From contig OY759599.1 of NCBI GenBank assembly GCA_963662465.1, forward strand, positions 5,632,001-5,696,000: a stretch of 64,000 nucleotides of DNA, in the 5' to 3' direction. A program made the position numbers and the translations under genes. Below the pieces are notes generated by a model that was not told the DNA's origin, made no database searches, and worked only from the letters and a program-made list of their open reading frames with translations. Below are positions 19,970 to 38,400 of this stretch, in pieces. Position 1 is the first letter of the stretch. Every line of letters begins with the position of its first letter. Origin of the DNA: Desulfatiglandales bacterium. Lineage in GTDB: Bacteria; Desulfobacterota; DSM-4660; Desulfatiglandales; Desulfatiglandaceae.

Positions 19970-20646
19970 GCTATGAAGACATCCTGCTCATTCAGCATGT
20001 GGCTGCAGAACTGCTGAAACGCTATTGCTACCATTATTACAACTATTCCAAGCGTGCCTACATCGAGCCCAGACTGGAACTGCGGGAATTGACTGGAACC
20101 GATGACAATTTTCCCGAACGTGACGAGAAACGAACGGATGGTTTCTGGTGCGATTACCAGGTTGTCGTGGACGGGGATGAGCAGACGCTGATCAACAGCA
20201 TCGAGCAGATCAAACAAGATATTGCTGCCAAAAAGAAGGATGGCATCGAGCTCTTTCTGCTTCGTAACATGAGCCGGGGCAAGGGTGTCGGTTTTTTCGA
20301 GGCAGGCCGGTTTCATCCCAACTTTATCCTGTGGATGCTGAAGGACGGCAAACAGTACGTCACCTTCATCGACCCTCACGGTCTGCTCCATGGGAGCGGG
20401 ATCGGCGATGAAAAGATCAAATTGCATAAAGGCATCAAGGAAATCGAGAAGCGTCTCAATGACCCGGAAGTGATCCTCAACAGCTTCATCCTCTCGTGGA
20501 CCAAATACCCGCAATTGAAATGGAACAAAGAACAGAAAGAGCTTGAGGATATGCATGTTCTTTTCATGCAGGACGACAGGGATCAATATATTGATAAGCT
20601 TTTTGATAACCTGAGAGGGCAAGCGGGCGGTGCGATGATCAATTGA
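19970..20646 (+). pseudogene. Type III restriction (Res) subunit C-terminal fragment
   Basis: LFLLRNMSRGKGVGFFEAGRFHPNFILW...TFIDPHG nuclease region; helicase part missing. Confidence 0.65.
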
Positions 20647-20654
20647 TAATCGCG

Positions 20655-20856
20655 TCACCTATGATTTCGATCTTTATATTGATTGCATCGGACGCAAGCG
20701 TAGATCAGGTTATCCTGATCATCATTTCCATCCGCTGCTTGCGGCCGATAATGGTCGATGGTGAGTTCACCGCCCACTGTGATCTCGGTTACGCCACAGT
20801 AACCGCATCGCCGTTCGAAGCGGTCCCTTATGGTTTTAAACTGGGGATGGGGCAAT
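20655..20856 (-). pseudogene. HNH endonuclease, C-terminally truncated
   Basis: RCGYCG...LTIDHYRP...NLIYACVRCNQYK. Confidence 0.7.
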
Positions 20857-21157
20857 TTTCCAGGCTGCTCAATTCCAGACCCATCAACGCCATGCAGGCG
20901 CCTTCCAAAGTCCAAATCTGACGATCAAGCCGATGGGTTCTAGCCTGGAGTTGAGCGTTAGTTGTTTCGAGATTTTCAACTTCAGACTTCAGCCGACGCA
21001 ACATCAATAAGTCACCGTTTTTCATATGCTTTTTCTCGTCAGCATCCAAGTCACTCAATCCTGCCTCGTAGGTCTCTCTCTCGCCGGGGTCCAAATCCTC
21101 TCCTTTGGCAGTGCGCACATGCAGTTGCCACCATCTCTCATGGGTTGATTGATCCAT
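20828..21157 (-). CDS. Hypothetical coiled-coil protein coupled to the HNH gene
   Basis: 109-aa ORF overlapping the HNH start. Confidence 0.55.
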   Translation of the reverse strand: MDQSTHERWWQLHVRTAKGEDLDPGERETYEAGLSDLDADEKKHMKNGDLLMLRRLKSEVENLETTNAQLQARTHRLDRQIWTLEGACMALMGLELSSLENCPIPSLKP

Positions 21158-21349
21158 CGTTTGCGCTCCTTTTTACCAGATGAGATGATAAAACCTCACT
21201 TTTTTAAGAAACGAAGTATAAATAAAACGGTCTTAAAGATCAAGGAAGTTCCGACTATTTCGACCAGCAGGTTAGGCTGATCGCCAGCCAGGCCAGGGTG
21301 ATGTTTCATCTGAGCTGTCTCTACAAAGCCCTTGGGGGCAGGTGGGCCT

Positions 21350-22204
21350 CTAAGAATTCGCTGACATTCGGCCCATGAAATAGGCGGCAACCAGGGTTCC
21401 CAAAACGGTGACCAGGGAGTAGGCAAATACCGCCGCGGGCGCTACGGTTCCCGCAAAATTGGCGGATGCCGCCACCAGGGCTGCCGGAGCATTGCGCACT
21501 GTGGTATTTAAAGCCAGAGCCTTTTTTTCCCCCTTATGGGGTCCTCCCATGAACCAGCCTATGACCAGACAGGTTGTAAAAAGGACAACACTGCCAACCG
21601 CGGCCCGCCAACCGAACAGCGCAAGGGTGTGGTAATGGGTCAGTATAATCAGGGAACAAGCCCCCAGAACCAACAAATTGTTCAGAACACGAAGGGGTCC
21701 GGCGATTTTCCGGCTGACAGCGGGCTGCCAATGGTTCAGCGCCAGCCCGGCTGAAAGGGGCAGGAGTTGACCCAGGGCCACGACCTTCATGATTTTCAGA
21801 TAATTTACATTAAGGAGCTCTCCTTCCGTAAATCCTGCCATCAGTAGCTTGAGCACAGCTGGAGAAATTACGGTGGAAAGGGCGGCCAGGAGGATCATGA
21901 GGCCGATGGATAGGGGAACATCGCCCTTGGCCAGGGCCGTGAAAGGAGGCCCCATGGGGGCCCCTGAAAAAACCACTCCTATCAGGAAACCCGCAGCCAC
22001 CAAGGGATCCGGCCTGAACAGGAGAAGAAGGCCAAAGGCCGCAAATGGCGCCAGCAGGAAATTCGTGACCAACCCCTTCCAAACGATTGCCCTTTTTTTT
22101 AGGGAATCCGTCAACTGGGTCGTGGTCACGGACGAGCCCATATGAAACATGAGGCATAAAAGCCAGATAAACGTAACCGTATCGGTAACCTGGTTCAACA
22201 TCAT
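21350..22204 (-). CDS. Bile acid:sodium symporter (BASS) family transporter
   Basis: GLVTNFLLAP, GAPMGPPFTALAKGD, TVRNAPAAL; about 9 TM. Confidence 0.88.
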   Translation of the reverse strand: MMLNQVTDTVTFIWLLCLMFHMGSSVTTTQLTDSLKKRAIVWKGLVTNFLLAPFAAFGLLLLFRPDPLVAAGFLIGVVFSGAPMGPPFTALAKGDVPLSIGLMILLAALSTVISPAVLKLLMAGFTEGELLNVNYLKIMKVVALGQLLPLSAGLALNHWQPAVSRKIAGPLRVLNNLLVLGACSLIILTHYHTLALFGWRAAVGSVVLFTTCLVIGWFMGGPHKGEKKALALNTTVRNAPAALVAASANFAGTVAPAAVFAYSLVTVLGTLVAAYFMGRMSANS

Positions 22205-22218
22205 TCAAGCTGCTCCGG

Positions 22219-23175
22219 TTATGCCTGTTCCAGCCTGTCCACTGCCTTCTTGATTTTCAGAACGGTCACATCCGCCAGTTTCCGGAGGCTTTCCACCTCT
22301 TCAGCGGAATAGGCGTAAAACCCCTTGCCCGTCTTCATGCCCAAGTCTCCTTTTGCCACCATGTCTTCCAGGATTTTGGGTGGTTTGAATCCGTCTTCCC
22401 CGGTTTTATCATGAACATATCTAAAAAGGTTCAAAGAGGTGTCCAAACCCGCATAATCGGCCATTCGAATGGGGCCGATGGTGCAGAGACGCAGGGCAAA
22501 GCCATTCTGAATCACGGTGTCCACATCTTCCGCCGAACAGACGCCCTTTTCCACCAGGGTCAAGGCCGCCCGGAACATGGCGGCCTGAATATAGTTGTGA
22601 ATAAAAGCGGGGTGTTCTTTTAAAACCACGGTTCGTTTCCCGATGCCATCCAAAAGACTTAATGCCAGTTCAACCGTTTTCGGGGAAGTCTTCCTGCCGG
22701 GGACCACCTCCACCACCGGCATGAGGTGAGCCGGAATAAACCAGTGGGTCACAATGGCCCTTTCAGGGTATTTCATCTCGGAAGCAATTTCGTCAATGCT
22801 CATGGAACTGGTGTTGGACGCCACGACGGTTTCTTTGCCGCAAAGCTCGCCGCACCGCTTGAACACATCCCGCTTGATATTCAGATTTTCAGGTACCGAT
22901 TCGGTCACATAATGGGCACTGCCCATGACCTCCTCCCAGTCCAGGGTGAAATGGATGCGGGATACGGCTACATCCGCTTTTCCCTGGTCCAGTACGCCCT
23001 GTTCCACCATGAGGCGGATATTGGACTCAAGCCGCTTTCGAGCATTTGCAAGGCTTGCCTGCTGCGTATCCAGCGCCTTTATCTCATACCCACTGCCCGC
23101 AAATGCCAGGGCAATATCCGGCCCCATAATACCCATACCCACCACTGCTACTCGTTTAATGTCTTCAACCTGCAT
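22219..23175 (-). CDS. 3-hydroxyacyl-CoA dehydrogenase family protein
   Basis: GMGIMG Rossmann, ESVPENL, ASNTSS, HWFIP..VVEVV, D..GLD, G.LG.KTGKGFY. Confidence 0.9.
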   Translation of the reverse strand: MQVEDIKRVAVVGMGIMGPDIALAFAGSGYEIKALDTQQASLANARKRLESNIRLMVEQGVLDQGKADVAVSRIHFTLDWEEVMGSAHYVTESVPENLNIKRDVFKRCGELCGKETVVASNTSSMSIDEIASEMKYPERAIVTHWFIPAHLMPVVEVVPGRKTSPKTVELALSLLDGIGKRTVVLKEHPAFIHNYIQAAMFRAALTLVEKGVCSAEDVDTVIQNGFALRLCTIGPIRMADYAGLDTSLNLFRYVHDKTGEDGFKPPKILEDMVAKGDLGMKTGKGFYAYSAEEVESLRKLADVTVLKIKKAVDRLEQA

Positions 23176-23190
23176 GGCGATTCTCCTCCT

Positions 23191-24129
23191 CTATTTTCCC
23201 TTGTCCCGCTTCTCAAAAGCACGATTCACAATTCCCTGAAGTCTTTCCATGGTTTCTTTTGTCGGCGGCTTGAAATCCCTCAACTGATAAATTCTCCCCA
23301 GAAAACCGTACTTGGTTTCCCCCAACCGGTGGTAGGGCAACAGCTCATAACTGATCACATTTTCATGGGGAAGGATAAATGCCAGCACGGCCCGCACATG
23401 ACTTTCGCTATCGTTTATGCCCGGCATAATGGGACTGCGCGCCAGGAAACGCTTATCTTTAAACGTGCTATAGGCCCTTTCCAGATTCGCGAGGATCCGA
23501 CTATTGTCCACCCCCGTCCATTTTTGGTGCCGGACGGGATCCATGAGTTTAAGGTCGTGAAAGATGGTGTCCACATGGGGCAGGACCATTTCCATGGCCT
23601 TCCAGGGCACATTGCTTGCAGTCTCAATGGCGGTACTGAGCCCCCGGACACGGGCTTCCTGAAGGAGGGCCGCCGAAAACCGGGGCTGACACAAACAATC
23701 CCCGCCGCTTAGCGATAGACCCCCGCCGCTTTCCCGGTAGAAGGCATTGTCCTGTTCCACCTCCTCCAACACCTGTTCCACCGTCATCTCTTTCCCGAAT
23801 CGATAGAGAGCCATGGAAGGGCAGACGTCCACGCAAAGACCGCAGTTGGTGCAAAGATCCCAATTGATTTTCATCCGGTCGCTGGGAGAAAGGGTAAAAA
23901 TAGCGGATTCGGGGCAGATCTCCCTGCAGGCGCCGCAGGCGTCTTCCCCGATGCATTTATGGGGGTTATAGGCCAGTTCCGATTTGGGATGGATGCTCTC
24001 GGGATTACAGCACCACTTGCAGCGAAGGGAACATCCTTTCAGAAAAACCGTGGTGCGAATACCAGGCCCATCATGAAGACTGAAATGCTGAATGTTTAAG
24101 ACCGTGCCCGTTTGCTGGTTCTTCGCCAT
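23191..24129 (-). CDS. Glycyl-radical enzyme activase (radical SAM with ferredoxin insert)
   Basis: HDGPGIRTTVFLKGCSLRCKWCCNPE; two ferredoxin-type Cys motifs (CIGEDACGACREICP, CTNCGLCVDVCP); ELLPYHRLG. Confidence 0.95.
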   Translation of the reverse strand: MAKNQQTGTVLNIQHFSLHDGPGIRTTVFLKGCSLRCKWCCNPESIHPKSELAYNPHKCIGEDACGACREICPESAIFTLSPSDRMKINWDLCTNCGLCVDVCPSMALYRFGKEMTVEQVLEEVEQDNAFYRESGGGLSLSGGDCLCQPRFSAALLQEARVRGLSTAIETASNVPWKAMEMVLPHVDTIFHDLKLMDPVRHQKWTGVDNSRILANLERAYSTFKDKRFLARSPIMPGINDSESHVRAVLAFILPHENVISYELLPYHRLGETKYGFLGRIYQLRDFKPPTKETMERLQGIVNRAFEKRDKGK

Positions 24130-24144
24130 GAAGCAAATCCCCCT

Positions 24145-25224
24145 TTATTGTGAATCCCCAAGGGATATGCCCAGGGCCCGTGCTACCTGAACCAATTCAC
24201 GGCCGTGGGGTTGCACAAAAATCAGGTCAGGGGGTTGAAAGGCCGTCATGACGCCGATTCGACCGTCCTTCAGGGCGCGGACAGCGGCGGCGCCGTAGCC
24301 CACACCCAGCTGACGGTCCACGGCCGTGGGGTTGCCGCCGCGAATCAGTTGACCCAAAACCAGGGGAAAGGTCTCCTGAGCCATCCGTCTCTGCAATTCA
24401 AGGGCCACGCTTTCAGCCACCAACCCTGACTGGTCCATCACATGACTGCCCTCGTTTAACAGTGGGTTTTCACCTTTTGCGGGAGAGGCCCCTTCCGCCA
24501 CGACCACCATGGCCACGGGCCATCCCCGCCGCAATTTTTCCTGGAGCCGTGTGGCCACGGACCCCAGGTGGTAAGGAATTTCCGGAATCAGGATAGCATC
24601 GGCGGGAAGCGCCATGCCCCCTTGCAGGGCCAGCCAGCCGGCGTGGGTTCCCAGCACCTCCACCACGGCGATTCGACCCAGCGTTTCCGCCGCGGTTCGA
24701 GCCCGGTCGAGGGTTTCCACCACATAGGCAAGGGCACTGTTAAACCCGAAGGACAGGGTGGTTCCCGCCACATCATTTTCCACCGCCTTAGGCACACACA
24801 CCAGGGGAAGCCCTTTCCGAGCCAGTTTCCAGACCATACCCAGTTCTTTAAGCCCCAGCACGGAAATGATGCCGTCAATGCCTGCTGCTTCTACGTTTTG
24901 AAGCAGGGTATCGCTCAGATCTTTTTCCACGATCTGGTTGTCCGGGTCCACCACCTGGACCCGAAAGGGGTCGATGGGGTGCGTTGTGCTCAGAATACCC
25001 CTCGAAAGGACGGCAGGGTTCTCAATTTTCAGGGGGGAGAGAGAAACCATGCCCCCCTCTTCATATCGGTCCGGAAAAAGCAATCCGTCAAAGCCGTCGC
25101 GGATGCCCACCACCTCCCAGCCCAGTTCAAAGGCGGCCCGAACCACGCCCGTAAATACCGCGTTCAGGCCCGGTACATACCCTTCCCCCACATTCACCGC
25201 AATCCGCTTTATTTTCGAACCCAT
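24145..25224 (-). CDS. PfkA-fold protein with divergent active-site motifs
   Basis: PGLNAV, GIRDGFDGL, PKAVEND, EVLGTHAGWLAL, LIPEIPY, VVVAEGA, IRGG. Confidence 0.8.
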   Translation of the reverse strand: MGSKIKRIAVNVGEGYVPGLNAVFTGVVRAAFELGWEVVGIRDGFDGLLFPDRYEEGGMVSLSPLKIENPAVLSRGILSTTHPIDPFRVQVVDPDNQIVEKDLSDTLLQNVEAAGIDGIISVLGLKELGMVWKLARKGLPLVCVPKAVENDVAGTTLSFGFNSALAYVVETLDRARTAAETLGRIAVVEVLGTHAGWLALQGGMALPADAILIPEIPYHLGSVATRLQEKLRRGWPVAMVVVAEGASPAKGENPLLNEGSHVMDQSGLVAESVALELQRRMAQETFPLVLGQLIRGGNPTAVDRQLGVGYGAAAVRALKDGRIGVMTAFQPPDLIFVQPHGRELVQVARALGISLGDSQ

Positions 25225-25260
25225 GCCCTGTTCTCCTCCGACTTCCGACTGCTGCCCCCT

Positions 25261-27756
25261 CTACATATCATATTCAGTGCGAGCAATGATCTCATTCTGA
25301 GTGGCCGGATCCAGCTCCGAAAAAAAGGCCGAGTATCCTGCGACCCGAACGATGAGGTTTCGGTATTTTTCCGGATCTTTCTGGGCCGCCCGCATGGTCT
25401 CGGCGGAAATGCAGTTCATCTGAATATGCCAGATCTTGAGATTATACCACCCCCGGATGAGGGAAACCAGTTTTTGAGTGCCCGCATGCCCCTGCAGGGG
25501 ACCGGGAGAAAGCTTGATATTTAAGAGAGGCGAACACCAGTGTTTGGAATCGTGTGGAACAAATTTGCTCACGGAGTTAAGGAGCGCCGTAGGCCCCATG
25601 GTGTCATATCCCTGTTGAGGACCTGCCCCCTCGGACAGGGGTTCTCCGGCCCTGCGTCCGTTGGGCGTGGCGCCGGTGGCCTGCCCCAGAACAATGTGGG
25701 TGGTGACGGGAAGCACCCGGAGTTCCCAGTTGCGGCCCACCACGTTGTTGGGATTATCGAGCTTTCCGATCTCGTCCACCATGAACCGGTTGATCCGGAC
25801 CATCATGAGGTCGGCCTCAGCATCGTTGTTTCCCCATTTGGGGGCGCTGATGCAGAACTGGCGAATCTTTTCCTTTCCTTCCCAGTTTTTCTCGACAGCC
25901 TCCAGAAGTTCGGCCATGGTGAACCGTTTTTCATCAAAGACCCGTCTTTTGATGGCCACCAGGGAATCGCACAGGGTGCCCGAACCGATCATGTCGATGT
26001 TGACCAGGGACACAAGGTCTTTGTTCGTAAATCCCACGCCGCTTCGCATGGCATCCTTCATTTCCCGCATGAACGGCTCATTGACGATGCTGCTGAGAGG
26101 CGACGCGATGTAGCGGGAGCGATAGCCTTCATAAAGAATATTACGATCAAAGACCATTTTCAGATGATAGCGCATCTGCCGGGCCCAGGCCTCCCAGACC
26201 GCTTCAAAGGTTTCGAATTGTTGAGGGTCTCCCGTCCTGAGCCCAACGGTTAGGTCCCCGAGCCTTCGAATTCTACCGTCATTGAGGGCCATCTCCAGGG
26301 ATGCAACCTGGTTATTGTAAGTACTGCCACAGTTGTACACTTCACTTCGAATCTGCCGGCATTCCATACATCCGTTCACGGTCCAGTCGTTGGCCAGGTG
26401 CAGTGGAACGCCCTTGGCCAGATACATGGGTATCACCACCTCGTCGTTAAGCAGCTTGGGATAACCCTGGCCCTCTTTGATGGTTTCGGCAATATCGTAG
26501 AAAAGCCTGTCCGGAGTGTTGGAGTGGATCCTGACCGCCAGATCGGGCATGGTCAGGGCCACGCCGCTTTTGGATTTCAGAAAAAGGTAGGTCAGTTCAT
26601 TGCTGGCATCGCGACCGTCGGTTGTCTGGCCTCCGAGGGTCACACACTCAAAATGCGCGAAACCGGACGTGGACCCCGCGATATGCCCCGCCAGGGGCAT
26701 GAAGATGTATTGGTACATCTTGAGGTTGAGCATGCGGATCAGATCCAAGGCCTCCTCGTCCGTAATGCGGCCCTCCTCCCGGTCTTTTTTGTAATAGGGG
26801 TACAGGTACTGGTCCATGCGCCCGTTGCCCACATTGCCGCCGATATTGAGCTCGATCCGGGTCCAGACCTGCAACCACCACTGACATTGAAGGGCCTCTC
26901 GAAAGGTACGGGCCGGATGCTCGGGTACTTGTCGGCAGATGGCGGCGATTTCCGTCCACTTGGCGATCACTTCAGGGTTTTCGGCCTTCTGAGCCAAAGC
27001 CTCGGCCTTGTGGGCGTATCGGTTTGCCCATGTGACAACCGCCTCACAGGTGAGCAGGCCGGCCTCGATGAAATCATTTTTTTCCGAACATCGGGGGTCC
27101 GTGGGCATGAGGGACGCGCGCATTCCCTCCAGTTCCTTTCGAATGCCCGCAAAGCCTTTCTTGAGAACACGCTCGTAGTCCAGGGTCCAGTTCTGGCTGG
27201 ACCTGCCGGTGCCGGTTTCCACATAAACGCCGGTGGGCTTTCCGTCTTTTGTCCATCCAAAATCATAGGCGGCGGGGGCGTTTGCCCGCAGCAGGCTCAT
27301 GAAGTTCACATCCAGGGCATGTTCCCGCCAATAGGGGATGATGTCCGATTCCATGACCGGCCAGTCGGAAGGGTCAATAAACGGTTCGGATGGAGCGGGG
27401 TCGTCCTTGACCATTCTTTTGAGCGATGCGTATCCTCCGCCATCGCACTCGGCAAAGGGGACCACGTAGCGACCCACCCATGGGGCAGGGGAACCCACAA
27501 TCTCCTCATCGGGATCGATGAAGACGGGAATGCGCTCCGCGAAGGCTTTGAGGAATTTGGCGTGGCGCAGGTTAATGGGCTGCCCTTCCGTTTCCCGGTA
27601 CACATCGGTCAGGATTTTTGTCCGTTCCACCAGCAGACGTATGGGCAGACTTCGAATGCGCTCCAGCAGTCGATCAAATCCCGGACTGGTCCTGACCCAG
27701 GTGGATTTTCCCTGTGCAATGGCTTTTTCCTGGGCGGTGAGTTCCCCAGTATCCAT
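25261..27756 (-). CDS. Glycyl radical enzyme, IslA/HpsG-related clade, substrate unknown
   Basis: GRMDQYLYPYY, Cys loop NGCMECR, Gly loop LIVRVAGYSAFF; RSSQNW and YPKLLNDE motifs of the sulfonate-lyase clade. Confidence 0.92.
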   Translation of the reverse strand: MDTGELTAQEKAIAQGKSTWVRTSPGFDRLLERIRSLPIRLLVERTKILTDVYRETEGQPINLRHAKFLKAFAERIPVFIDPDEEIVGSPAPWVGRYVVPFAECDGGGYASLKRMVKDDPAPSEPFIDPSDWPVMESDIIPYWREHALDVNFMSLLRANAPAAYDFGWTKDGKPTGVYVETGTGRSSQNWTLDYERVLKKGFAGIRKELEGMRASLMPTDPRCSEKNDFIEAGLLTCEAVVTWANRYAHKAEALAQKAENPEVIAKWTEIAAICRQVPEHPARTFREALQCQWWLQVWTRIELNIGGNVGNGRMDQYLYPYYKKDREEGRITDEEALDLIRMLNLKMYQYIFMPLAGHIAGSTSGFAHFECVTLGGQTTDGRDASNELTYLFLKSKSGVALTMPDLAVRIHSNTPDRLFYDIAETIKEGQGYPKLLNDEVVIPMYLAKGVPLHLANDWTVNGCMECRQIRSEVYNCGSTYNNQVASLEMALNDGRIRRLGDLTVGLRTGDPQQFETFEAVWEAWARQMRYHLKMVFDRNILYEGYRSRYIASPLSSIVNEPFMREMKDAMRSGVGFTNKDLVSLVNIDMIGSGTLCDSLVAIKRRVFDEKRFTMAELLEAVEKNWEGKEKIRQFCISAPKWGNNDAEADLMMVRINRFMVDEIGKLDNPNNVVGRNWELRVLPVTTHIVLGQATGATPNGRRAGEPLSEGAGPQQGYDTMGPTALLNSVSKFVPHDSKHWCSPLLNIKLSPGPLQGHAGTQKLVSLIRGWYNLKIWHIQMNCISAETMRAAQKDPEKYRNLIVRVAGYSAFFSELDPATQNEIIARTEYDM

Positions 27757-27806
27757 CTTTTTCTCCCTGTTTTTTGAGCTGTTAGCTCTTAGCTAAAAGC
27801 TGGAAA

Positions 27807-28733
27807 CTATCCCTTTAGAAAATCAGGATTCGCAAACTCCGGGTCGGGATAAGTGTAAAAGCCTTTTCCAGTCTTGACCCCCAATTCTCCCTTATCAACC
27901 ATGGCCTTGAGGGCATCGGGCGGACGATCCCTTTCCTCCCCGGATTCCAGGTAGTAGCTCATCTCCACATTGTAGGTTACATCCAGGCCGTTAATATCCA
28001 TCTGACCAAAGGGTCCGACAGGCAATCCGTAAGCCACCATCCAGGCCCGGTCGATGTCCCGGAAATCCACAAACCCGTCAGCCCACATATACAGAACCTG
28101 TCGTTTAACGGACCGCCACACACGGTTAAAGCAGAAACCGTAAATCTCCTTTCTGACCGTAAGGGGAATGCAGCCGATGGCGGAAATCCATTGCTTTCCC
28201 GCTTCCAGGGTTTCGGGGCTCGTTTGACTACCCCCCATGATGTCCACCATGTTGATGCCCGTTACCGGCGTATAGAAATGCAGATTCAGGCATTTTTCGG
28301 GTCGTTTTGTGGCATCCTCGATCCTTGAAATGGGAATGGTGGAGCTGTTGCTGGCCAGGATGGCCCTGGAAGGGGCCAGGGCATCCATCTCTTTGAATAC
28401 CTTCCGCTTGAGTTCCAGATTTTCGGGCACCGCCTCGATGACCAGATCGGCATCCTTCAGGGCATCGGCCATGACGGAGGCGGTTTGTACTTTTGAAATA
28501 GCGCCGTTCCACTGTTCAATAGGGACCACAGGCCCTTTCTTGCGGGCGGTCATGATGCCTTCAAACTGCGCGACCGAGCGCTCAAAGGCCCCTTTCGTGT
28601 TGTCATAGACCGTGGCCTTGAAGTCAAAACAGGCGGCCTGAACGGCAATCTGGGCACCCAGAATGCCTGCGCCGATGATGGTTACCTGCAAGATTTGCAT
28701 GGTTTCAGGATAATTGAAAGTTTTTTCGTTCAT
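27807..28733 (-). CDS. 3-hydroxyacyl-CoA dehydrogenase family protein (second paralog)
   Basis: GAGILG, IEAVPENLELK, ASNSST, LHFY, GELGVKTGKGFY. Confidence 0.88.
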   Translation of the reverse strand: MNEKTFNYPETMQILQVTIIGAGILGAQIAVQAACFDFKATVYDNTKGAFERSVAQFEGIMTARKKGPVVPIEQWNGAISKVQTASVMADALKDADLVIEAVPENLELKRKVFKEMDALAPSRAILASNSSTIPISRIEDATKRPEKCLNLHFYTPVTGINMVDIMGGSQTSPETLEAGKQWISAIGCIPLTVRKEIYGFCFNRVWRSVKRQVLYMWADGFVDFRDIDRAWMVAYGLPVGPFGQMDINGLDVTYNVEMSYYLESGEERDRPPDALKAMVDKGELGVKTGKGFYTYPDPEFANPDFLKG

Positions 28734-28842
28734 TCTTTTCCCTCCTTATTTTTTGAGACCAAATCTGCGTATCACGCAAATCCTCGTTGAGCCCAATTCT
28801 TTACCATTGACCATTTATCGGGATTTTGATATTTTTTCCAGC

Positions 28843-29079
28843 ATGAAACCAATCCGATACGATTGCCATGCTAGAAAGTGGATGAAAGACCGCCATGTTC
28901 ATGATGACGAAGTCAGGGTTGCCATTGAAAACCCCGACTTCATGGAGCAAAGCGTAAAAGGACGTATCAATGCCTTCAAATTCCTTAATAAAAGATATTT
29001 GAGAGTCACTTTTAAGAAGGAATTGGACCACGTATTGGTGATCACGGTAACCATAAGGAAAAAACCTTTCAAGGAGTAA
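28843..29079 (+). CDS. DUF4258-type putative toxin
   Basis: IRYDCHARKWMKDR...AIENPD...LRVTF...LVITV; paired with a DUF2283 gene. Confidence 0.7.
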   Translation: MKPIRYDCHARKWMKDRHVHDDEVRVAIENPDFMEQSVKGRINAFKFLNKRYLRVTFKKELDHVLVITVTIRKKPFKE

Positions 29080-29083
29080 CTCG

Positions 29084-29302
29084 ATGAAAATCGAATACAG
29101 CAAAGGGATTGATGCCTTATATATTCGGCTTAGAGAAGTCCGTATTTCCGACTCCATGGACATAGAAGAAGGCGTAACAGTTGACCTGGATGAAAAAGGC
29201 CATATCGTCGGCATCGAAATCCTGGACGCAAGTGAAAAAATGGCTATCTCTGATCTTTTCAACATCCATATCGAAAACTTCCCACTTGAAAAGGTAGCCT
29301 GA
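29084..29302 (+). CDS. DUF2283-type putative antitoxin
   Basis: MKIEYSKGIDALYIRL...VDLDEKGHIVGIEILDAS. Confidence 0.85.
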   Translation: MKIEYSKGIDALYIRLREVRISDSMDIEEGVTVDLDEKGHIVGIEILDASEKMAISDLFNIHIENFPLEKVA

Positions 29303-29348
29303 TCCATTTTCTTGTCCCACCCGCCTGGCATAGCCTGTCACTTCAATC

Positions 29349-31136
29349 CTAACGCCAGCGGGTACGCTCAAATTTCCCCGTTATGGCCGCATTCACCACA
29401 TCCCGGCGTGTGCCCAGCCAGTTTTTGGGGAAACCGATGCCTGACCCGAGGGTAGCCATCTTGAGGCTGTCGGTGGCATAGACCAGGGATTCAGCCACCT
29501 GGAAGTCCCGGTCGATCATACCGGGACAGCAGGAGTGAACTACCCGGGCCCCGCTTTTTTCCACGGCTTCCACCAATCCCGCCTTTTTGGCGGCGCTGTA
29601 CATGATATAGTCCGTATATAACCAGAGACGCTTTTTCACCTTCTGCCCATTCAGGAGTTTGGCCAGTTCGACGAATTCCTCAAGGGTCAAAAACGGGCAC
29701 CCCACCACCGCCACATCGATTTCACGATTCTCGGTCTGATGGATGCCGTGGAAAAGGGCGCGTAAATCCGCCTTGCCGATTTGAATGCGCTCTACATCAG
29801 CGGGAATTTCACCCCCGAAAGCATCCTCAAGGGTCTGGGCTTCGGGGGTAATGCCCACAATGTGGATCATGGGGTAGGTCAACGCCGGGGAGACGCAGGC
29901 ACAGAATGCCTTGGCCTGCTCGTTGGTCATCTCCTTGAGACCCGCCACTACCGGCACCCGGTCCACGGCCCGAAAGCCGATGGCGCCTCCCAGGGCAACA
30001 AAGTCGCCGATATCCAGCAATTCCGGAAGAACTTCGGGGGCCACCTCAAAGAGCATCTGTCCCTTCCGATTTTTCCAGAGATGCATGCCGTATTCGGGCA
30101 TGACGCCGGTAATAGCAGCATAGAGGACCATGTTGGCGGGGTCGCGATTCACCCTGGCCCCCAGCATGGTATTGGTGTAGGCCGCGTGGTTGCTTTCGCT
30201 GGTCACATGGCATTCCCCGAACCGTGCCACGCTCATGTGCATGTAAGGGATGCAGGTGGGGATCACATGAACCCCCATGGACTTCAGATTGTCATGAACC
30301 GGCTTCATGGCCTCATACACTTTTCGGGCAGGGGTCCGAACCTTGTAATGCCAGGGCATGCCAAGGTCGTCCACCAGTTCGTCCGCTATGAAGGTACTCT
30401 CCAACGTAGTGGGAACGGCCACTTTGGCGTCCAGTTTCGCAAATTCCTCATAAATGGGCCAGGCGCCGATGACCAAACCTTCAGTCTTCCAGTCGGAAAA
30501 TACATGGGCTGAACGAATTTTGGCCATTTTTGTGGAACCCATCCCCTGACCGAATTTCACCAGTCGCTCCATGGCCACCTGTTTGGCTTTGCCGCGCTTG
30601 CCCGCCAGCATCTCCTGTTCATGGGATGTCAGTTGGAGACAGTCTTTTTTCCAGCCCCTTGCCTTCTTTCTCTCCGGTGTTACCTCTTCCGCGGCCGCTT
30701 CCTTTGAACAAACCTCGACAATGGCCTCTCCGCCGGCTTCAGGCGCCGTAATCTTGACCCGGTCTCCTGTTTTTATGGTTTGGCAAGGATCCAGGTCAAA
30801 ACCGTCCACCGCCGGGATCCCAGCGTCCACGGCGCCCCCCACGCTGATGGGATGAACCGTCCGACAGATCAGGGCCTTGGGACCTTTGCCGGTGATCTTG
30901 CATTTGAAATACAGCCCCCAGGCGCCTCCCGTGGAAAAAATATCGGTATCATAAACAATGATCTTCCCAGCATAGCTCTGACCCATCAGAGGGTGGCCGT
31001 TCATACGGATCACGCCGTCGGATCCGATGGCATTAAAAAGATGACTCAATTTTTCGGTGGTGACCAGGGCCTCCCCTTCGACCTCGCCTTCAACGCGCGT
31101 GATACCATGAAGAACTTTGCTTGGTTTTTGTTCCAT
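29349..31136 (-). CDS. Aconitase X, fused swivel (DUF126) + catalytic (DUF521) domains
   Basis: GEVEGEALVT swivel start; EMLAGKRGKAKQVAM; TCIPY; ESNHAAYTNTMLGARVNR; AAITG..P.YGMH; HIVGITPEA; GCPF; ATDSLK. Confidence 0.87.
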   Translation of the reverse strand: MEQKPSKVLHGITRVEGEVEGEALVTTEKLSHLFNAIGSDGVIRMNGHPLMGQSYAGKIIVYDTDIFSTGGAWGLYFKCKITGKGPKALICRTVHPISVGGAVDAGIPAVDGFDLDPCQTIKTGDRVKITAPEAGGEAIVEVCSKEAAAEEVTPERKKARGWKKDCLQLTSHEQEMLAGKRGKAKQVAMERLVKFGQGMGSTKMAKIRSAHVFSDWKTEGLVIGAWPIYEEFAKLDAKVAVPTTLESTFIADELVDDLGMPWHYKVRTPARKVYEAMKPVHDNLKSMGVHVIPTCIPYMHMSVARFGECHVTSESNHAAYTNTMLGARVNRDPANMVLYAAITGVMPEYGMHLWKNRKGQMLFEVAPEVLPELLDIGDFVALGGAIGFRAVDRVPVVAGLKEMTNEQAKAFCACVSPALTYPMIHIVGITPEAQTLEDAFGGEIPADVERIQIGKADLRALFHGIHQTENREIDVAVVGCPFLTLEEFVELAKLLNGQKVKKRLWLYTDYIMYSAAKKAGLVEAVEKSGARVVHSCCPGMIDRDFQVAESLVYATDSLKMATLGSGIGFPKNWLGTRRDVVNAAITGKFERTRWR

Positions 31137-31250
31137 ATTTTCCTCCAGGATAATGGTAGATGATTGACTAAAGCCCTCGTGCCGCCGAACGTTCCTTGGA
31201 AATCAGGTCCCCATCCAGCTTGAAGTAGTCCCAGGCCCTCTCCTCCCTGA

Positions 31251-33632
31251 TTATGTTTGCTGTGAACTGTCTTGATGCAAATCCTTCAGACCTTCCGCGG
31301 ACCGGATATGCAGGTCCAGTTGCGGAAAGGATATTTCGATGTTGTTTTCCCTGAAAATACGGGTGATGTGGTAGCGTACCTCCGAGTCGGCATATCGGTC
31401 GGACCAACCCTTGATCCATAGCCTGAGGGAAAAAACCAGGGTGTTGTCGCCGAAATCGAGAAATCGGACTCTCGGAGGCGGTCGATCGATCACCTTGGCG
31501 CTTTGTTTGGCGGCTGAAAGGAGCAGTTCGGTCACTTTTTCCACATCGGAGCCGTAGGCCACGCCAATTTTGATTTCCTGGCGGTAGCGCCGGTCCGCAT
31601 GGCTCCAGTTGATCATTTTCTGCGATATCAACAGGGAATTGGGCACAAAGATGGTGGCCCCTGAAAACGCTTTGACAAGGGTATTGCGAATGGTCACTTT
31701 CCTGACATGCCCTCTGATATTGTCGATTTCCACCAAATCCCCCGGCTGAAGGCTTCTCCCAAACAGGAGAATTAATCCGCCGATGAAATTGTTCACGATG
31801 TTCTGCAACCCGAAACCCAAGCCCACGGAAAGGCCTCCGGCGATAACGGCCAGGTTTCTGAAGGAGATGCCCAGAAGTCCCAACGCGGCCAAAACGAACA
31901 GGGACCAGAGTACGTAGGTGACAATGGTGTCCAGGGACTGCACCGAACCCGAATCCAAGTCCCGGTGGCGTTCCGGCAGTTTGGTTAAAGCCGAACGTGC
32001 CAGGGCAATGCCGGCGCGAACCGCAAACAGGAGGGAAAAAATACAGATAATGCGATAGATGCTGAAGGTGAAGTTATCCCAGCCGACCCGATAACGGATG
32101 ACGTCCAGAAAAAGTGACCCTCCCCCCACAAAGATAAAGATCCAGGCAAGACTCAATAACAGCAGGGTCAAAAAGATCAGTGGAAACCCCAGACCCCGTA
32201 TAGCCACGGGGGAATGAGCATCCAAAGGTATTTTTTTGCGCTGCCGACGAGAACCGATCTTCCCCAATCCGACACTGAGCCCCTTGGCCAGACGAACATT
32301 CAGCGATAGCAACAGCAACAGCATCCCTATCAGAACAGATAGATAACCCCAACCCAGGAAGGCCATAAAGGCCAGCATCGGCATGGCCGCAACGAGAATG
32401 GCCCTGGATATATTTGCCCAACGCTCGTTTTTCGTCTTGGCGCGGGCATAGTGCCAACACAGGACCAAAAGCCAGATCGACCACACCGGGATAAACGTTT
32501 CCTCCGGAATATGAAGCGACTCCAGAAGGGCGCAGACGGAGACAGCGGCCCAGAGTGGGATCAAACGATGGGGTTCAGAATCCTGATCGGGGAAGAATAA
32601 ATGCCGCAGATTTCGAGAAAGGGAGATCAGGCCGTAAACCAGAATCACCGTTACCGCCGTTGAAAAAAATGCTGACGGAAAAAGCCCCGTGGAAGAAACA
32701 CCCAGGAGGATGCCGGCGCTTGCGGCACAGGACAGGAGGAAGGGGAGCAGTTGAATGTCCTTCAGACTTTCGAACCGCTTTTCGATCCGTTTCAGAAAGG
32801 CGATGGACATTCCCAGAAAGAGCAGGAAAAACAATACAATTTTGGACATAAACATCGTCCATCCCATCCCCTTCAAGTCGATGGGTTCCAGGAGATAAAT
32901 ACCGAATCCGGATGCCCATTTCCAGGCAGCGGTGAGCCCCGATGACCAGGCTGGGGCCGAAAAAAAGCTGGCGGTGCGCCTCAGCAAATGGGTTTCCAAA
33001 ACCCGATTGGATTCCTGCTCAATTCGAGCCCGGTCTTTTTCCAAAAGAAGGATAAAGCTCTCGGCAGCCTCAAGCCCCTTGGTCAAACCGAGGGTCATGG
33101 GTTGGAGTTTGGCTTGCAGAGCCGCCAGATCGTTCAAATAGGCCTTTACCGCCATATCCATGTGGGGGCCCAATTGTTTGATGGGATTCTCTTCCTGATT
33201 GAGTTTGCGGAACAAATCGGCCAGGTTCTCCATTTGTCGCACCACGGACGCTTTTTCCTGTTTGAATGGTGAAACGAGCCTGTCCGCTTCACGTTCAAAC
33301 CAACCCAGAACACCCAGGATATCCTGTAAGATAAGCGGGTTTCCAGACCTGAGATCAAAATAGAGCATGAGCTTTTCAAACCGGGATCTTAGCAGGTACA
33401 GGTGTTTTTGAAGGTTTGACAGTCGATCCGGCAGTTTTAAGGCCAACTGGTCCACGGCTTTGGCGGTCTCGGTAAGCTCCTGGTGCTGACGTTTCAGCAA
33501 TTCGTCCCAACTGTCGGGTTCATTTCCGGAAGGGTTGCAGGCGAGAAGAGACATCAGCATCAAAACCAAAAAAAAAAGGTGAAGATGCGTTTGATCTCTT
33601 CTGATAACCTTTTTTTTTCGCTTACAGCTCAT
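31251..33632 (-). CDS. Large MscS/MscK-family mechanosensitive channel
   Basis: GGLSVGLGFGLQNIVNNFIGGLILL, VPNS, IGVAYGSD, ISFPQLDLH; lipoprotein-like N-terminus. Confidence 0.9.
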   Translation of the reverse strand: MSCKRKKKVIRRDQTHLHLFFLVLMLMSLLACNPSGNEPDSWDELLKRQHQELTETAKAVDQLALKLPDRLSNLQKHLYLLRSRFEKLMLYFDLRSGNPLILQDILGVLGWFEREADRLVSPFKQEKASVVRQMENLADLFRKLNQEENPIKQLGPHMDMAVKAYLNDLAALQAKLQPMTLGLTKGLEAAESFILLLEKDRARIEQESNRVLETHLLRRTASFFSAPAWSSGLTAAWKWASGFGIYLLEPIDLKGMGWTMFMSKIVLFFLLFLGMSIAFLKRIEKRFESLKDIQLLPFLLSCAASAGILLGVSSTGLFPSAFFSTAVTVILVYGLISLSRNLRHLFFPDQDSEPHRLIPLWAAVSVCALLESLHIPEETFIPVWSIWLLVLCWHYARAKTKNERWANISRAILVAAMPMLAFMAFLGWGYLSVLIGMLLLLLSLNVRLAKGLSVGLGKIGSRRQRKKIPLDAHSPVAIRGLGFPLIFLTLLLLSLAWIFIFVGGGSLFLDVIRYRVGWDNFTFSIYRIICIFSLLFAVRAGIALARSALTKLPERHRDLDSGSVQSLDTIVTYVLWSLFVLAALGLLGISFRNLAVIAGGLSVGLGFGLQNIVNNFIGGLILLFGRSLQPGDLVEIDNIRGHVRKVTIRNTLVKAFSGATIFVPNSLLISQKMINWSHADRRYRQEIKIGVAYGSDVEKVTELLLSAAKQSAKVIDRPPPRVRFLDFGDNTLVFSLRLWIKGWSDRYADSEVRYHITRIFRENNIEISFPQLDLHIRSAEGLKDLHQDSSQQT

Positions 33633-35507: not shown

Positions 35508-36815
35508 TCATTTCGTCATCATATTCGGCAGCAAAAGCGCCAGATCCGGAAAAACGGTAACAAGAATCACCACCGCGAATATAGCCAGCAGAAACGGGGC
35601 CACACCGCGAAAAATGGTCTCCACCGGTACACCCTTGGCAACACCCGCCACCGTAAAGATATTCAGGCCCATGGGAGGGGTGATTAGTCCCGCCTCCATC
35701 ATCAACACCGCGATCACACCAAACCAGATGGGGTTGAACCCCAATGCCAGAATCACCGGATAAATGACCGGCATGGTCAAAACCATCATGCTGATGGCGT
35801 CCAGAAAACAGCCTAGAAACATGTACATAAGAATAACAACGGTGTGAATCACATAGGGGGAAACATCCAGGGTTCCGGCCCATTCGGCCACCTGCATGGG
35901 AATGGTGGACAGCGCCAGAAAATAACTGAACACATTGGCCCCGGCCACGAGAAACAGCACCATAATGGAAATGTGTACCGATTCCTGAAGGGCGTTGGTG
36001 AGATTTTTCCAGGTCAGTTTCTTTTTGAAAAGGGCGATCAACAACAGCACCGTAGCCCCGATGGCGCCTGCTTCCGTGGGTGTAAAGAAGCCTCCGTAGA
36101 TCCCTCCCATGACCAGCAAAAAGACCGCCAGGGGTTCCCATACCTTCAGAAGGGCGGCAAATTTAACGCGCCGGGAAACGGATTCAAGGTTCGCCGGCGC
36201 CAGGGCCGGATTGATCTTCACCATGAAGACCACGATCCCCACATAGGCCAGCGCCAGGGTCAAACCGGGGAAAATGCCTGCCACCAGCAGCTTCCCAATG
36301 GACTGCTCGGTCAGCATGCCGTACACGATGAACCCGATGCTCGGTGGGATCAAAAACCCCAGCGTGCCCCCTGCGGCGATGCTGCCCGTGGCTAGTCGGG
36401 GATGGTATTTATATCGCTCCATTTCGGGCAGCGCCACGGTCCCCATGGTGGCCGCCGTGGCCACGGATGAACCGGAAACCGCTGCAAATCCGGCACAGGC
36501 CCCGATGGTAGCCACGGCAAGCCCTCCGGGCAACCGCCGCAACCATTTATCGAAGGTATTGTAGAGGTCCTTGGTCATACCCGAACTTGCCGCGAACCCC
36601 CCCATGACGATGAAGAGGGGAATCACCGTGTAGGGGAAATAGGCACTGACCTCGTAAACGGTTCGGGAGACCATTGGAAGCGCCGCTTCAATGCCGGACA
36701 GATAGGCAACCCCCGCAAAGCCCACGAACATTAAGGCATAGGCGATATGCATGCCGAGGAAAAGCAGCAGAAACACCAGGGCCGTGCCCATGATGCCGAT
36801 GGTCACAGGATCCAC
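35508..36815 (-). CDS. dctM: TRAP transporter large permease DctM
   Basis: FAAVSGSSVATAA, GTLGFLIPPS, FTPTEAGA, GLITPPMG. Confidence 0.95.
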   Translation of the reverse strand: MDPVTIGIMGTALVFLLLFLGMHIAYALMFVGFAGVAYLSGIEAALPMVSRTVYEVSAYFPYTVIPLFIVMGGFAASSGMTKDLYNTFDKWLRRLPGGLAVATIGACAGFAAVSGSSVATAATMGTVALPEMERYKYHPRLATGSIAAGGTLGFLIPPSIGFIVYGMLTEQSIGKLLVAGIFPGLTLALAYVGIVVFMVKINPALAPANLESVSRRVKFAALLKVWEPLAVFLLVMGGIYGGFFTPTEAGAIGATVLLLIALFKKKLTWKNLTNALQESVHISIMVLFLVAGANVFSYFLALSTIPMQVAEWAGTLDVSPYVIHTVVILMYMFLGCFLDAISMMVLTMPVIYPVILALGFNPIWFGVIAVLMMEAGLITPPMGLNIFTVAGVAKGVPVETIFRGVAPFLLAIFAVVILVTVFPDLALLLPNMMTK

Positions 36816-36817
36816 GG

Positions 36818-37291
36818 TTATCTCCTTACCAGTTTCCGGATAGCATCCACCAGGTCAAGCACCAGTTCCAGACAAAGAAAGACCCCGGCCACCGACACCA
36901 GCAGCCTGAAAGGGTATTGGGGCACTCGCAGCATATCCGAAACCGTGCGCTCTTCCATGCCCACCACCCAGCCCTGCCAGGCCATAACGGCGATAATGAA
37001 CAGACTCAGAAGGGTGGTCAAAATCTGAAGCGTCAGAGCCGCCTTTTCCGGAAGGCGAGACGTCAGCATGGTCACACGCACATGCCCCCCCACCTGGTGG
37101 GTGTAGGCAATTCCCAAAAGCATAAATATCGCCAGCATATAACTTGACAGTTCCATGGAACCGGGAATAGGCTTGGACCAGATGGCCCGACCCACAACCT
37201 CCCCGCTGGTCAGCAACATCATGGGGATCAGAAAAAACATGCCCACATAGTTTAAAGAAAAGGTAATACGTTGTATGATTTTCCGTATCAT
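36818..37291 (-). CDS. dctQ: TRAP transporter small permease DctQ
   Basis: 4 TM; EVVGR, ELS, GHVRV. Confidence 0.92.
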   Translation of the reverse strand: MIRKIIQRITFSLNYVGMFFLIPMMLLTSGEVVGRAIWSKPIPGSMELSSYMLAIFMLLGIAYTHQVGGHVRVTMLTSRLPEKAALTLQILTTLLSLFIIAVMAWQGWVVGMEERTVSDMLRVPQYPFRLLVSVAGVFLCLELVLDLVDAIRKLVRR

Positions 37292-37338
37292 CTTTTGCCG
37301 CTCCGTTTCGGTTGGGTGTAAGGTATCAGGTTAAAATG

Positions 37339-38400
37339 CTATTTTTTCCATTCCGGCGGCATGGCCACACAGGTTACCCCTGCATCCGTCGCGGCCTGGT
37401 CATACACGAGGACCGTCTTCTTGGCGGGAAGGCCCTTTTGTTCCAGATCCGCCACCCATTTTTTGGTGACATCCTGGAAACGGGCGAACCATTTCTTTTC
37501 CTGGTCCTGGGGCAGCTTGTAAAGCTTTATGCCCTTTGCCTCGATTTCCTTCATCATGGTCTTGTACACCGCCTGATTGAGACCGCCCGTGGTGCGAAAG
37601 GGATTGCCGCACACCTCTTCGATGATGACTTTAAGATCATCGGGGGTTTTTTCCCAAACTTTTTTGTTCATGATCACCCCTTCGGACACACAACCAAAGG
37701 TGGCTACCACGCCGTATTTGGCCACTTCATAGAGCTTGAAAGCTAAAACCAGGGGGGGGCAGGTTACCAGGCCGTCGATGGCGCCGGTTTCAAGGGAAAG
37801 GTACGCATCGCCCAGAGGCATGAACACCGGTTCCGCGCCCAGTGCCTTGATATACTGAGTCTGCAGACCGCCGGGGGCCCTGATTTTCATGCCTTTGAGG
37901 TCTGCAAGGGAATGGACCGGTTTTCGGGTCCACAAAAAGGCCTGGATGCAACCATTCAACTCTATGACTTTTACATCTTTAAACTCTTCTTCCAATGCGC
38001 CCTTGTACACCTTGTTGCCGATGTCAACGGCCACGTCTTTCCCATCCACCCAGGCCGCAAGGGACAAGACGTCGGTCAATGGAAACCTGCCCGGGGTCCA
38101 GGTGGCGGTAAAATACCCCATATCGGACATGCCGTTACGCACAATATCAAAATGTTCCGGGCCCTTACCGAGTGCGCCCCCCGCATAGAGAGTAGTCGTA
38201 ATACGGCCGTTGCTGCGCTTTTCCAGTTCCGCCAGCATGGGCTTCCACACCGTCTTCACTTCCCGGCTTGCGGGCGGATGCCATGTGGAGAATTTCAGGT
38301 GAATCTCACCATCCGAATCCGCCATTGCGATCGCGGGCAGAACCATGGCCAGGAAACCCACCAGCAGAAACCCCTCAAACAAACCTTTTCCTTTTTTCAT
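37339..38400 (-). CDS. dctP: TRAP substrate-binding protein DctP
   Basis: Signal peptide; DLKGMKIR, LGAEPV.MP..Y.SLETGAIDG. Confidence 0.92.
   Translation of the reverse strand: MKKGKGLFEGFLLVGFLAMVLPAIAMADSDGEIHLKFSTWHPPASREVKTVWKPMLAELEKRSNGRITTTLYAGGALGKGPEHFDIVRNGMSDMGYFTATWTPGRFPLTDVLSLAAWVDGKDVAVDIGNKVYKGALEEEFKDVKVIELNGCIQAFLWTRKPVHSLADLKGMKIRAPGGLQTQYIKALGAEPVFMPLGDAYLSLETGAIDGLVTCPPLVLAFKLYEVAKYGVVATFGCVSEGVIMNKKVWEKTPDDLKVIIEEVCGNPFRTTGGLNQAVYKTMMKEIEAKGIKLYKLPQDQEKKWFARFQDVTKKWVADLEQKGLPAKKTVLVYDQAATDAGVTCVAMPPEWKK

Follow-up and report, generated by a model that had tools for sequence, protein, structure and literature searches.

What does a glycyl radical enzyme (GRE) do when its gene stands in a row with genes for an aconitase X (AcnX), two hydroxyacyl dehydrogenase (HAD)-type enzymes, a secondary transporter and a protein with the fold of phosphofructokinase (PFK), and do these genes serve a single pathway? 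The question is raised by a locus of Desulfatiglandales bacterium (assembly GCA_963662465.1, contig OY759599.1), which lies in a stretch of 64,000 nucleotides, hereafter the window. An earlier note on this DNA had listed seven co-oriented minus-strand genes, mostly with short gaps, and both the arrangement and the families assigned were borne out. The acnX, HAD-2, GRE, PFK-like, activase, HAD-1 and BASS open reading frames (ORFs) are all on the minus strand at 21350-31136, each preceded by a purine-rich stretch resembling a ribosome-binding site. From HAD-2 onwards the genes are separated by 50, 36, 15, 15 and 14 nt, and acnX and HAD-2 by 615 nt. The genome, a single contig of 8.16 Mb, carries dsrA, and by tblastn its GRE, its activase and its AcnX are each the only one present. 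The cluster is a real, conserved and uncharacterised GRE system with a type of putative accessory protein, a PFK-fold protein devoid of kinase motifs (pseudo-PFK), that we did not find in print.

The GRE (831 aa; 25261-27756, minus strand) has the features of the PFL-like eliminase/isomerase class: the domains PF02901 (PFL-like) and PF01228 (Gly_radical), the motif C463-x-E465, G807 and an adjoining activase that passes TIGR02494. Its best solved relatives are C-S lyases, namely IseG (5YMR, 651 bits), HpsG (6LON, 647 bits) and IslA (7KQ3, 624 bits), with the next class reaching at most 423 bits. On the HpsG hidden Markov model (HMM) NF048011 it scores 819 bits, below the cut-off of 1000, and two other clade members score 817 and 849. 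The models for HypD (470 of 1100 bits) and HpfG (409 of 1000 bits) gave lower values, and the cut-offs of the C-O lyase families (GD, PD, HypD and HpfG) were missed. Among the 120 best GRE matches listed, drawn from 7,999 best candidates scored, 15 are 66-90% identical to the window's GRE and the others 40-45%. This last range also holds for IslA-type sequences and lies below the ~60% identity at which clusters are delimited (PMC6453916; papers are cited by PMC identifier for the parts of their text that were available). In a tree of 38 rows, the 14 clade rows sit on one branch (SH-aLRT 100) with a stem of 0.72 changes per site, and divide into subclade A, which holds the window, and subclade B. 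The neighbours of the clade are the IslA/HpsG-like group and a third group, also uncharacterised, and the tree fixes no order among the three. The GRE thus lies outside the characterised isofunctional clusters, as the earlier note's proposal required.

Active-site residues were mapped by alignment to 7KQ3 and within a clade alignment of 15 or 16 sequences, with the roles of IslA residues taken from PMC8473560. The radical machinery is intact, and both arginines and the CxE glutamate are kept: IslA R189, R678, C468, E470 and G805 correspond to R185, R680, C463, E465 and G807, conserved in 15/15 clade sequences for R185 and in 16/16 for each of the others. Six pocket positions are changed (I192 to Q188, Q193 to N189, T312 to G307, W374 to F369, V680 to L682 and F682 to V684) and are likewise conserved in 15/15 or 16/16 of the clade, while a second glutamate, E464, occurs in only 6/16. 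Sulfonate-ligand residues are specific to the IslA group (PMC8473560, PMC6453916). The resemblance to IslA/IseG, whose activases are IslB/IseH, extends to the ferredoxin insert of the activase, and that to HpsG/HpsH (NF048011/NF048010) to both arginines and a roomier pocket suited to a substituted carbinol; unlike in HpsG, the residue corresponding to Gln187 is replaced by Asn, so that the Arg-Gln-Arg triad is lost. Retention of the Arg, Cys, Glu and Gly residues together with the changed pocket suggests that the anion clamp and the eliminase chemistry are kept in a larger pocket, in an enzyme that is neither IslA nor HpsG. On alignment and phylogeny, we place the GRE in an uncharacterised clade next to IslA/IseG/HpsG, with a predicted pocket roomier than that of IslA.

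Further GREs were retrieved along the way; related loci, genomes and contigs are numbered with L, G and C, respectively. The same-genus genome G405, which bears the new clade, also encodes a canonical IslA-type GRE (L073, contig C4; 1538 bits on NF048011), and this coexistence suggests that their substrates probably differ. A second uncharacterised group (L066, L068, L087 and L088), 40-42% identical to the window's GRE, has both arginines and the Asn and is often found with a FabG-like short-chain dehydrogenase/reductase (SDR) and a carboxymuconolactone-decarboxylase-family gene. The L066 GRE reaches 1015 on the HpsG HMM, above the cut-off, despite a different pocket, so NF048011 over-annotates. 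A more distant group (28-30%; L069 5894-8515, L070 12361-14653 and L088 6942-9458) uses the pseudo-PFK/activase unit, and in its L069 and L070 members the Cys loop is atypical, the CxE glutamate being absent. A GRE homologue in L051 (1486-3855; G421) has Thr aligned with the radical glycine, which makes it a candidate aminoacyl radical enzyme of the kind described in PMC11528403.

Two scans of a genome collection returned 15 loci, 12 of them in the GRE clade; the pairs L002/L003, L004/L005 and L007/L008 were counted once each. Pseudo-PFK and activase genes stand beside the GRE in seven of the eight related loci that could be judged (L003, L006, L007, L009, L010, L011 and L015), L001 ending too early for this purpose. 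HAD-1 is present in L003, L004/L005, L009, L010, L011 and L015 and absent from L006 (L007 ends too early), and its orthologues, 50-75% identical, occur in both subclades. BASS was found in L003, L006, L009, L011 and L015, with a homologue also in L096. AcnX (71-87% identical) is encoded in 4/4 subclade-A relatives with an intact 5' side (L001, L002/L003, L007/L008 and G405, where AcnX and GRE are on separate contigs), and HAD-2 orthologues (69-84%) in L001, L002, L094 and L096. Subclade B (L004/L005, L006 and L011) has no AcnX (0/3) and carries an SDR after the GRE, L006 having a second SDR before it. Carbinol/carbonyl oxidoreductases number two in every locus of sufficient length: HAD-1 with HAD-2 (window, L002/L003 and G405), SDR with HAD-1 (L004/L005 and L011) or two SDRs (L006). 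Upstream, both L001 and L094 continue with genes for BKACE, a TRAP transporter and a 4Fe-4S protein, and L094 in addition with a divergent sigma-54 activator. The synteny therefore recurs, GRE homologues co-occurring with PFK-like, activase, HAD and BASS genes and, in one subclade, with AcnX. The idea of seven genes as one fixed set did not hold, since only subclade A has AcnX and HAD-2, subclade B carries an SDR, and BASS also accompanies other GRE clades.

The distribution of the cluster is patchy, the clade being present in 2/10 same-genus genomes and in 0/50 of the other relatives searched; the closest GRE-bearing kin of the window belong to Desulfobacteraceae and Desulfatiglandales. Two relatives have unusual copies. 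In G410, a fifth subclade-A relative (L015, 9114-11263), the 5' half of the GRE is lost beside a transposase-like ORF and the genome contains no match to AcnX; this GRE is a decaying copy. G405 has two cluster copies with GREs ~90% identical on contigs C44, C178, C237, C313 and C311 (L009, L010 and L094-L096), which represent either a duplication or a mixed bin (8% contamination).

AcnX (595 aa; 29349-31136, minus strand; PF01989 and PF04412) is a fused protein with swivel and catalytic domains. Aligned to 7CNP/7CNR, it keeps S68, T69, E314, S315 and K559, as well as the three TkAcnX-type cysteines C295, C480 and C537; S68, E314, S315, K559 and these cysteines, the set expected of a catalytically competent AcnX, are found in 4/4 aligned orthologues. 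In characterised enzymes the Ser acts as base, and Glu/Ser and Lys recognise the carboxylate and the 3-hydroxyl (PMC8184944). The window's protein thus resembles characterised AcnX in its type I fusion, its Ser base, Glu and Lys, and its three type II Cys ligands. It differs from 7CNP/7CNR in scoring only 122-127 bits against them, in being linked to a GRE and in lacking the hydroxyproline marks W35, D203, C510 and Y534 (NF051439, 223 of 700 bits). The region corresponding to the phosphate site of mevalonate-5-phosphate dehydratase (Gly48-Val49-Ser50, Asn53 and Asn79) aligns poorly and differs, and no mevalonate-pathway or hydroxyproline context was recognised around the gene. From its residues, the protein is predicted to be an Fe-S (de)hydratase of a beta-hydroxy acid. 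In L067 (14732-16700), a split two-gene AcnX (31% and 50% identical to the window's) lies ahead of a sister-clade GRE with pseudo-PFK, activase and BASS, so the pairing of AcnX with GRE reaches beyond the window's clade.

HAD-1 (318 aa; 22219-23175, minus strand) and HAD-2 (308 aa; 27807-28733, minus strand) are 3HCDH-family oxidoreductases, 29% identical to each other and both under every NCBIfam cut-off. Their closest solved relatives are, respectively, 5-formyl-3-hydroxy-2-methylpyridine-4-carboxylate dehydrogenase (4OM8) and diketoreductase (4DYD), which we take to act without CoA, a point that a literature search did not confirm, and no CoA ligase or transferase was found among the seven genes. 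With relatives of this presumed kind, carbonyl-handling enzymes are probably present. The statement that the cluster lacks aldehyde and alcohol dehydrogenases consequently stands for classical ones only. The two nearest HAD-1 paralogues in the genome (38% and 35%) sit in operons with ABC transporter and BKACE-like genes. The operons L097 and L098 (G000:C1:5821944-5829581 and 1113110-1119781), each with a HAD-family dehydrogenase, a branched-chain-type ABC transporter and a BKACE-like gene, are further uncharacterised 3-hydroxy-acid routes. The putative BASS/SBF-family transporter (284 aa; 21350-22204, minus strand; PF01758) reaches 73 of 326 bits on TIGR00841; as the family match is weak and the gene travels with other GRE clades, it says little about the substrate. 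Family profile searches detected no microcompartment, classical aldehyde/alcohol dehydrogenase or TRAP/ABC genes among the seven. The earlier remark that TRAP/ABC uptake and microcompartments are missing was thus correct for the window's cluster, although in L001 and L094 TRAP uptake genes belong to the same gene run. This absence of a microcompartment, with AcnX, two HAD-family enzymes, BASS and pseudo-PFK as partners, also sets the locus apart from those of IslA/IseG.

The scheme proposed in the earlier note, in which a hydroxy-acid or sulfonated substrate undergoes redox steps, dehydration and radical elimination, is still the best reading, though one that we infer. In the form that we tentatively favour, with somewhat less than even confidence, the GRE would cleave the C-S bond of a secondary hydroxysulfonate bigger than isethionate, with substrate supplied by stereo-inversion through two dehydrogenases and by AcnX. 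IslA and HpsG act by hydrogen abstraction, formation of a Glu-assisted ketyl and loss of sulfite (PMC13450708). By analogy, the Cys463 thiyl would abstract the hydrogen from the carbinol carbon of HO-CH(R)-CH2-SO3-, Glu465 would deprotonate the hydroxyl, and the ketyl radical would expel sulfite held by Arg185 and Arg680, with Gln188 and Asn189 replacing IslA Ile192 and Gln193; Gly307, Phe369 and Val684 would make room for R. The products would be a ketone and sulfite, the latter for respiration. The two different NAD(P) oxidoreductases may together work as a racemase via the oxo compound, bringing both enantiomers to a stereospecific lyase. HpsO/HpsP form such a two-component racemase for 2,3-dihydroxypropanesulfonate (DHPS), and HpsG is stereospecific (PMC13335735); stereochemical processing ahead of desulfonation is reported to be frequent (PMC13436972). 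Unlike HpsO/HpsP, the window's pair belongs to the 3HCDH family, and B. wadsworthia is without hpsOP (PMC13335735). AcnX would likely supply the carbinol by (de)hydration, the dehydrogenases would likely make or invert it, and the PFK-fold protein would likely aid the activase. All catalytic partners could fit one skeleton, HO-CH(R)-CH2-X-, where X is sulfonate or carboxylate; 3-sulfolactate, 2-hydroxypropanesulfonate and 3-hydroxy-4-sulfobutyrate are our guesses for the substrate.

Besides the C-S lyase relatives, two features of the pocket are consistent with sulfite release. Position Q188, at the site of IslA Ile192, which is near the sulfonate (PMC8473560), is Gln in 15/15 sequences. The positions of HypD His160 and Asp278 are N189 and G307 in the GRE; with no His or Asp there, no proton donor is evident for a hydroxyl leaving group, and sulfite would need none. 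The subclade-A genomes tested (G000, G405 and G410) all have dsrA.

Several observations weigh against C-S cleavage. IslA Gln193, which is essential (Q193A is inactive), is Asn in 15/15 clade sequences, and Val680, essential too, is Leu (PMC8473560). HypD likewise carries Arg at the position equivalent to R185 (PMC8473560), so the arginines alone are no proof of a sulfonate. AcnX retains the residues that recognise the carboxylate and the 3-hydroxyl, and the HAD, BKACE and BASS families point to carboxylates; a sulfonate could then fit only as an isostere or as an additional group. The absence of AcnX from 3/3 subclade-B loci indicates that it is not needed for the GRE reaction, and in L004/L005 the GRE has neither pseudo-PFK nor activase beside it. 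In none of the related loci did we recognise a gene of a known sulfonate pathway. Finally, dsrA was not found in G451, the sole subclade-B genome, for which completeness is not given, nor in three of six genomes with other pseudo-PFK GRE clades (G152, G878 and G906).

The strongest alternative, which we regard as possible but rather unlikely, makes the GRE an eliminase that breaks a C-O (or C-N) bond in a 2,3-difunctional carboxylic acid, converting for example a 2,3-dihydroxy acid to a 3-oxo acid. Here the arginines would hold the carboxylate, the abstracted hydrogen would come from C3, and the leaving group would be the hydroxyl or amine at C2; the HADs would then yield a 3-hydroxy acid and AcnX an enoate, while BKACE, where present, would cleave the 3-oxo acid. 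The partner families would all act on one C1-C3 beta-hydroxy/beta-oxo carboxylate skeleton, in keeping with the AcnX residues, with BKACE (PF05853) upstream of acnX in L001 and L094, and with the HAD, ABC and BKACE-like operons of the two HAD-1 paralogues. Without the Gln that contacts a third oxygen, the site would suit a two-oxygen anion, and the failure to detect dsrA in G451 is in line with this alternative. On the other hand, N189 and G307 take the place of the HypD His and Asp, E464 is present in only 6/16 sequences, and the nearest characterised enzymes are all C-S lyases. The window is also without BKACE, and BKACE-like genes elsewhere in its genome are 32-34% identical to that of L001.

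A different kind of explanation, that the seven genes are not one pathway, would have a mobile GRE, pseudo-PFK, activase and BASS cassette joined by AcnX and dehydrogenases of a separate hydroxy-acid route. This would account for the three unrelated GRE clades that pseudo-PFK, activase and BASS accompany, for the varying gene order (L002, L006 and L011), for the run of acnX, HAD-2 and BASS without an intervening GRE in G405 (L096), and for the occurrence in 2/10 same-genus genomes. We consider it improbable: AcnX (71-87%) and HAD-1 (50-75%) show divergence that parallels that of the GRE (69-88%), and their genes remain neighbours despite rearrangements, and the split AcnX of L067 also precedes a sister-clade GRE.

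The product of the PFK-like gene (24145-25224, minus strand; PF00365) had been counted as a member of the pathway, which the analysis did not support. It shares its fold family with bacterial PfkA and mixed-substrate PFKs (255 of 431 bits on TIGR02483), the nearest true PFKs being 36-42% identical; unlike PfkA, it has the GGDG, TIDND, MGR and LGH motifs replaced and is tied to GRE activases. In the window GGDG reads LGLK, TIDND reads AVEND and MGR reads LGT. Among 110 family members, none kept the Asp of GGDG, the Thr and Asp of TIDND or the Met and Arg of MGR, compared with 10/10 true PFKs from the fetched loci. The family is nonetheless conserved (mean column identity 71% over the 110 sequences), with an invariant Glu-Asn in place of Asp-Asn.

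The activase (23191-24129, minus strand; 330 bits on TIGR02494, cut-off 174) has a radical S-adenosylmethionine CX3CX2C motif (C33/C37/C40) and an eight-Cys ferredoxin insert, and scores 389 of 430 bits on NF048010, below the cut-off. Pseudo-PFK genes lie directly 5' of an activase gene in 16/16 distinct loci, eight of which were found through the PFK search alone, and two loci have a second copy downstream of the activase and upstream of a 4Fe-4S gene. By comparison, an activase gene was downstream of 0/25 GGDG-type PFK genes (one with only 270 nt of flank). The 12 linked activases share 58-90% identity and group in one clade (100/100), with ten unlinked activases falling outside it, while the GREs of the linked set are only 29-92% identical and differ in active site; these loci and activases include kin and are hence not independent. 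From these comparisons, the PFK-fold protein appears not to be a pathway kinase: it tracks the activase across unrelated GRE clades and likely assists it as an accessory. No pseudo-PFK/activase fusion was found in the nine longer or odd representatives scanned, of 150 listed. Pseudo-PFK occurs in 1/301 genomes of G451's class, a plasmid search gave best matches of at most 41%, and the ESM Atlas returned only PFK and AcnX family names.

Extra proteins have precedents among GRE systems, namely HPAD gamma, BSS beta/gamma and MASS beta/gamma/delta (PMC13450708). Those are small Fe-binding subunits of the GRE, unlike the 370-aa pseudo-PFK, which follows the activase. A ~360-aa protein with C-terminal 4Fe-4S motifs also recurs (L001 3995-5077, L094 13394-14467, L069 8512-9804, L070 6967-7791 and L088 13206-14363), twice directly behind a second pseudo-PFK; the family was confirmed with Pfam in L094 and L088 and judged by eye in the others. 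This protein is a candidate electron donor of the activase.

The conservation of the family and its invariant Glu-Asn would also suit an active kinase with an altered site, which would phosphorylate a pathway intermediate and so provide the GRE with a phosphorylated compound for the arginines to hold, a role that the earlier note's pathway allows. The GRE isomerases YbiW and PflD act on sugar phosphates (PMC13450708) and TkAcnX on mevalonate 5-phosphate (PMC8184944). We think this very unlikely, as 110/110 sequences have lost five motif residues that serve catalysis or substrate binding, and the gene keeps to one activase clade although the active sites of the accompanying GREs are completely different, which is not the behaviour of a substrate-specific kinase.

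The least probable alternative is a 3-hydroxy-acid formate-lyase, in which a C3 ketyl radical would split C1-C2 and the CO2 radical anion would give formate beside a methyl ketone, for example acetone and formate from 3-hydroxybutyrate; a 3-hydroxy acid would be isosteric with isethionate, belong to the substrate class of AcnX and HAD and need no leaving-group acid. Upstream in L011 there are genes that, judged by eye from their motifs, we take to be acetoacetate-decarboxylase-like and 3-hydroxybutyrate-dehydrogenase-like. We hold this reading to be highly improbable, as no such reaction appears among the eliminases and isomerases in sections 5.6, 5.7 and 7 of PMC13450708, the scission step is by our own estimate probably uphill, and the genes next to the GRE in L011 may have no connection with it.

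Compared with aligned homologues, the window's PFK-like gene lacks 11 codons near its 3' end. At 24200-24213 the window has 12 letters where a public-run contig and a related-strain contig have 45, 33 nt being missing. The public-run contig is otherwise identical to the window over 21000-31500, and the run is possibly the source of the assembly. Since both contigs have the 45-letter form, which restores the homologue length, the short gene is most likely an assembly defect, and pseudogenisation was rejected.

The list of seven genes omitted a plus-strand pair between acnX and HAD-2. Its first member is a DUF4258 protein (28843-29079; PF14076, E 2.6e-5, 24.9 bits against a cut-off of 25) and its second a DUF2283 protein (29084-29302; PF10049, E 2.3e-17). 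The pair, presumably toxin-antitoxin-like, fills the acnX-HAD-2 gap with a GC content of 0.42 against 0.53-0.60, and is missing from L001 and L094, where acnX and HAD-2 are 99 and 24 nt apart. It is an insertion and lies outside the pathway. A 176-aa minus-strand ORF at 28801-29331 was rejected as an eighth gene, being the antisense shadow of this pair.

Upstream, the mscS gene, for an MscK-like mechanosensitive channel (31251-33632), lies 114 nt from acnX; as related loci carry no homologue, it was not retained as a pathway member. A TRAP set is found 4.4 kb upstream of the cluster (35508-38400), beyond mscS and an opposite-strand gene, and was rejected as the orthologue of the relatives' TRAP, the binding proteins being merely 23-27% identical. 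Downstream of BASS, the minus strand at 20655-21157 encodes a 109-aa coiled-coil ORF and an overlapping ORF with a motif that we take to be HNH-like; a plus-strand fragment (19999-20646), without a Pfam match, is similar to a type III restriction subunit. The cluster occupies an insertion-prone spot. Promoter and terminator scans were near chance (17 versus 9.9 +/- 2.9 and 24 versus 20.9 +/- 4.4), and in one RNA run 0.05 of the sequence words were found, as short pieces only and mostly from relatives.

In the literature searched, this gene set is undescribed; subscription papers and supplements were outside the search and could hold the clade in a network figure. No such enzyme is listed in sections 5.6, 5.7 and 7 of a 2026 GRE review (PMC13450708), in whose available main text the terms 'phosphofructokinase' and 'aconitase' are absent, and the available text of PMC11528403 does not mention phosphofructokinase. 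According to section 5.6.3 of the review, radical C-S lyases are known for isethionate and DHPS only. A conserved GRE clade that combines the anion clamp of these lyases with a remodelled pocket, and that occurs in sulfate reducers as well as soil or peat bacteria, is a defined target in the search for another sulfonate sink or for a new radical reaction; the partner genes limit the compounds worth screening to beta-hydroxy sulfonates and carboxylates. The database labels 6-phosphofructokinase and formate C-acetyltransferase on these proteins mislead metabolic models.

The widest interpretation, which we put forward as possible yet doubtful, is of a pathway acting on one beta-hydroxy-oxyanion skeleton with a new radical cleavage of a C-S bond or, releasing formate, of a C-C bond, in which the kinase-fold partner would serve a whole activase clade of sediment and soil bacteria as a third component of glycyl radical installation. 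Poor reconstitution of activases is a main bottleneck in the field (PMC13450708). Such a partner, if real, would account for the failure of some activases that are expressed on their own.

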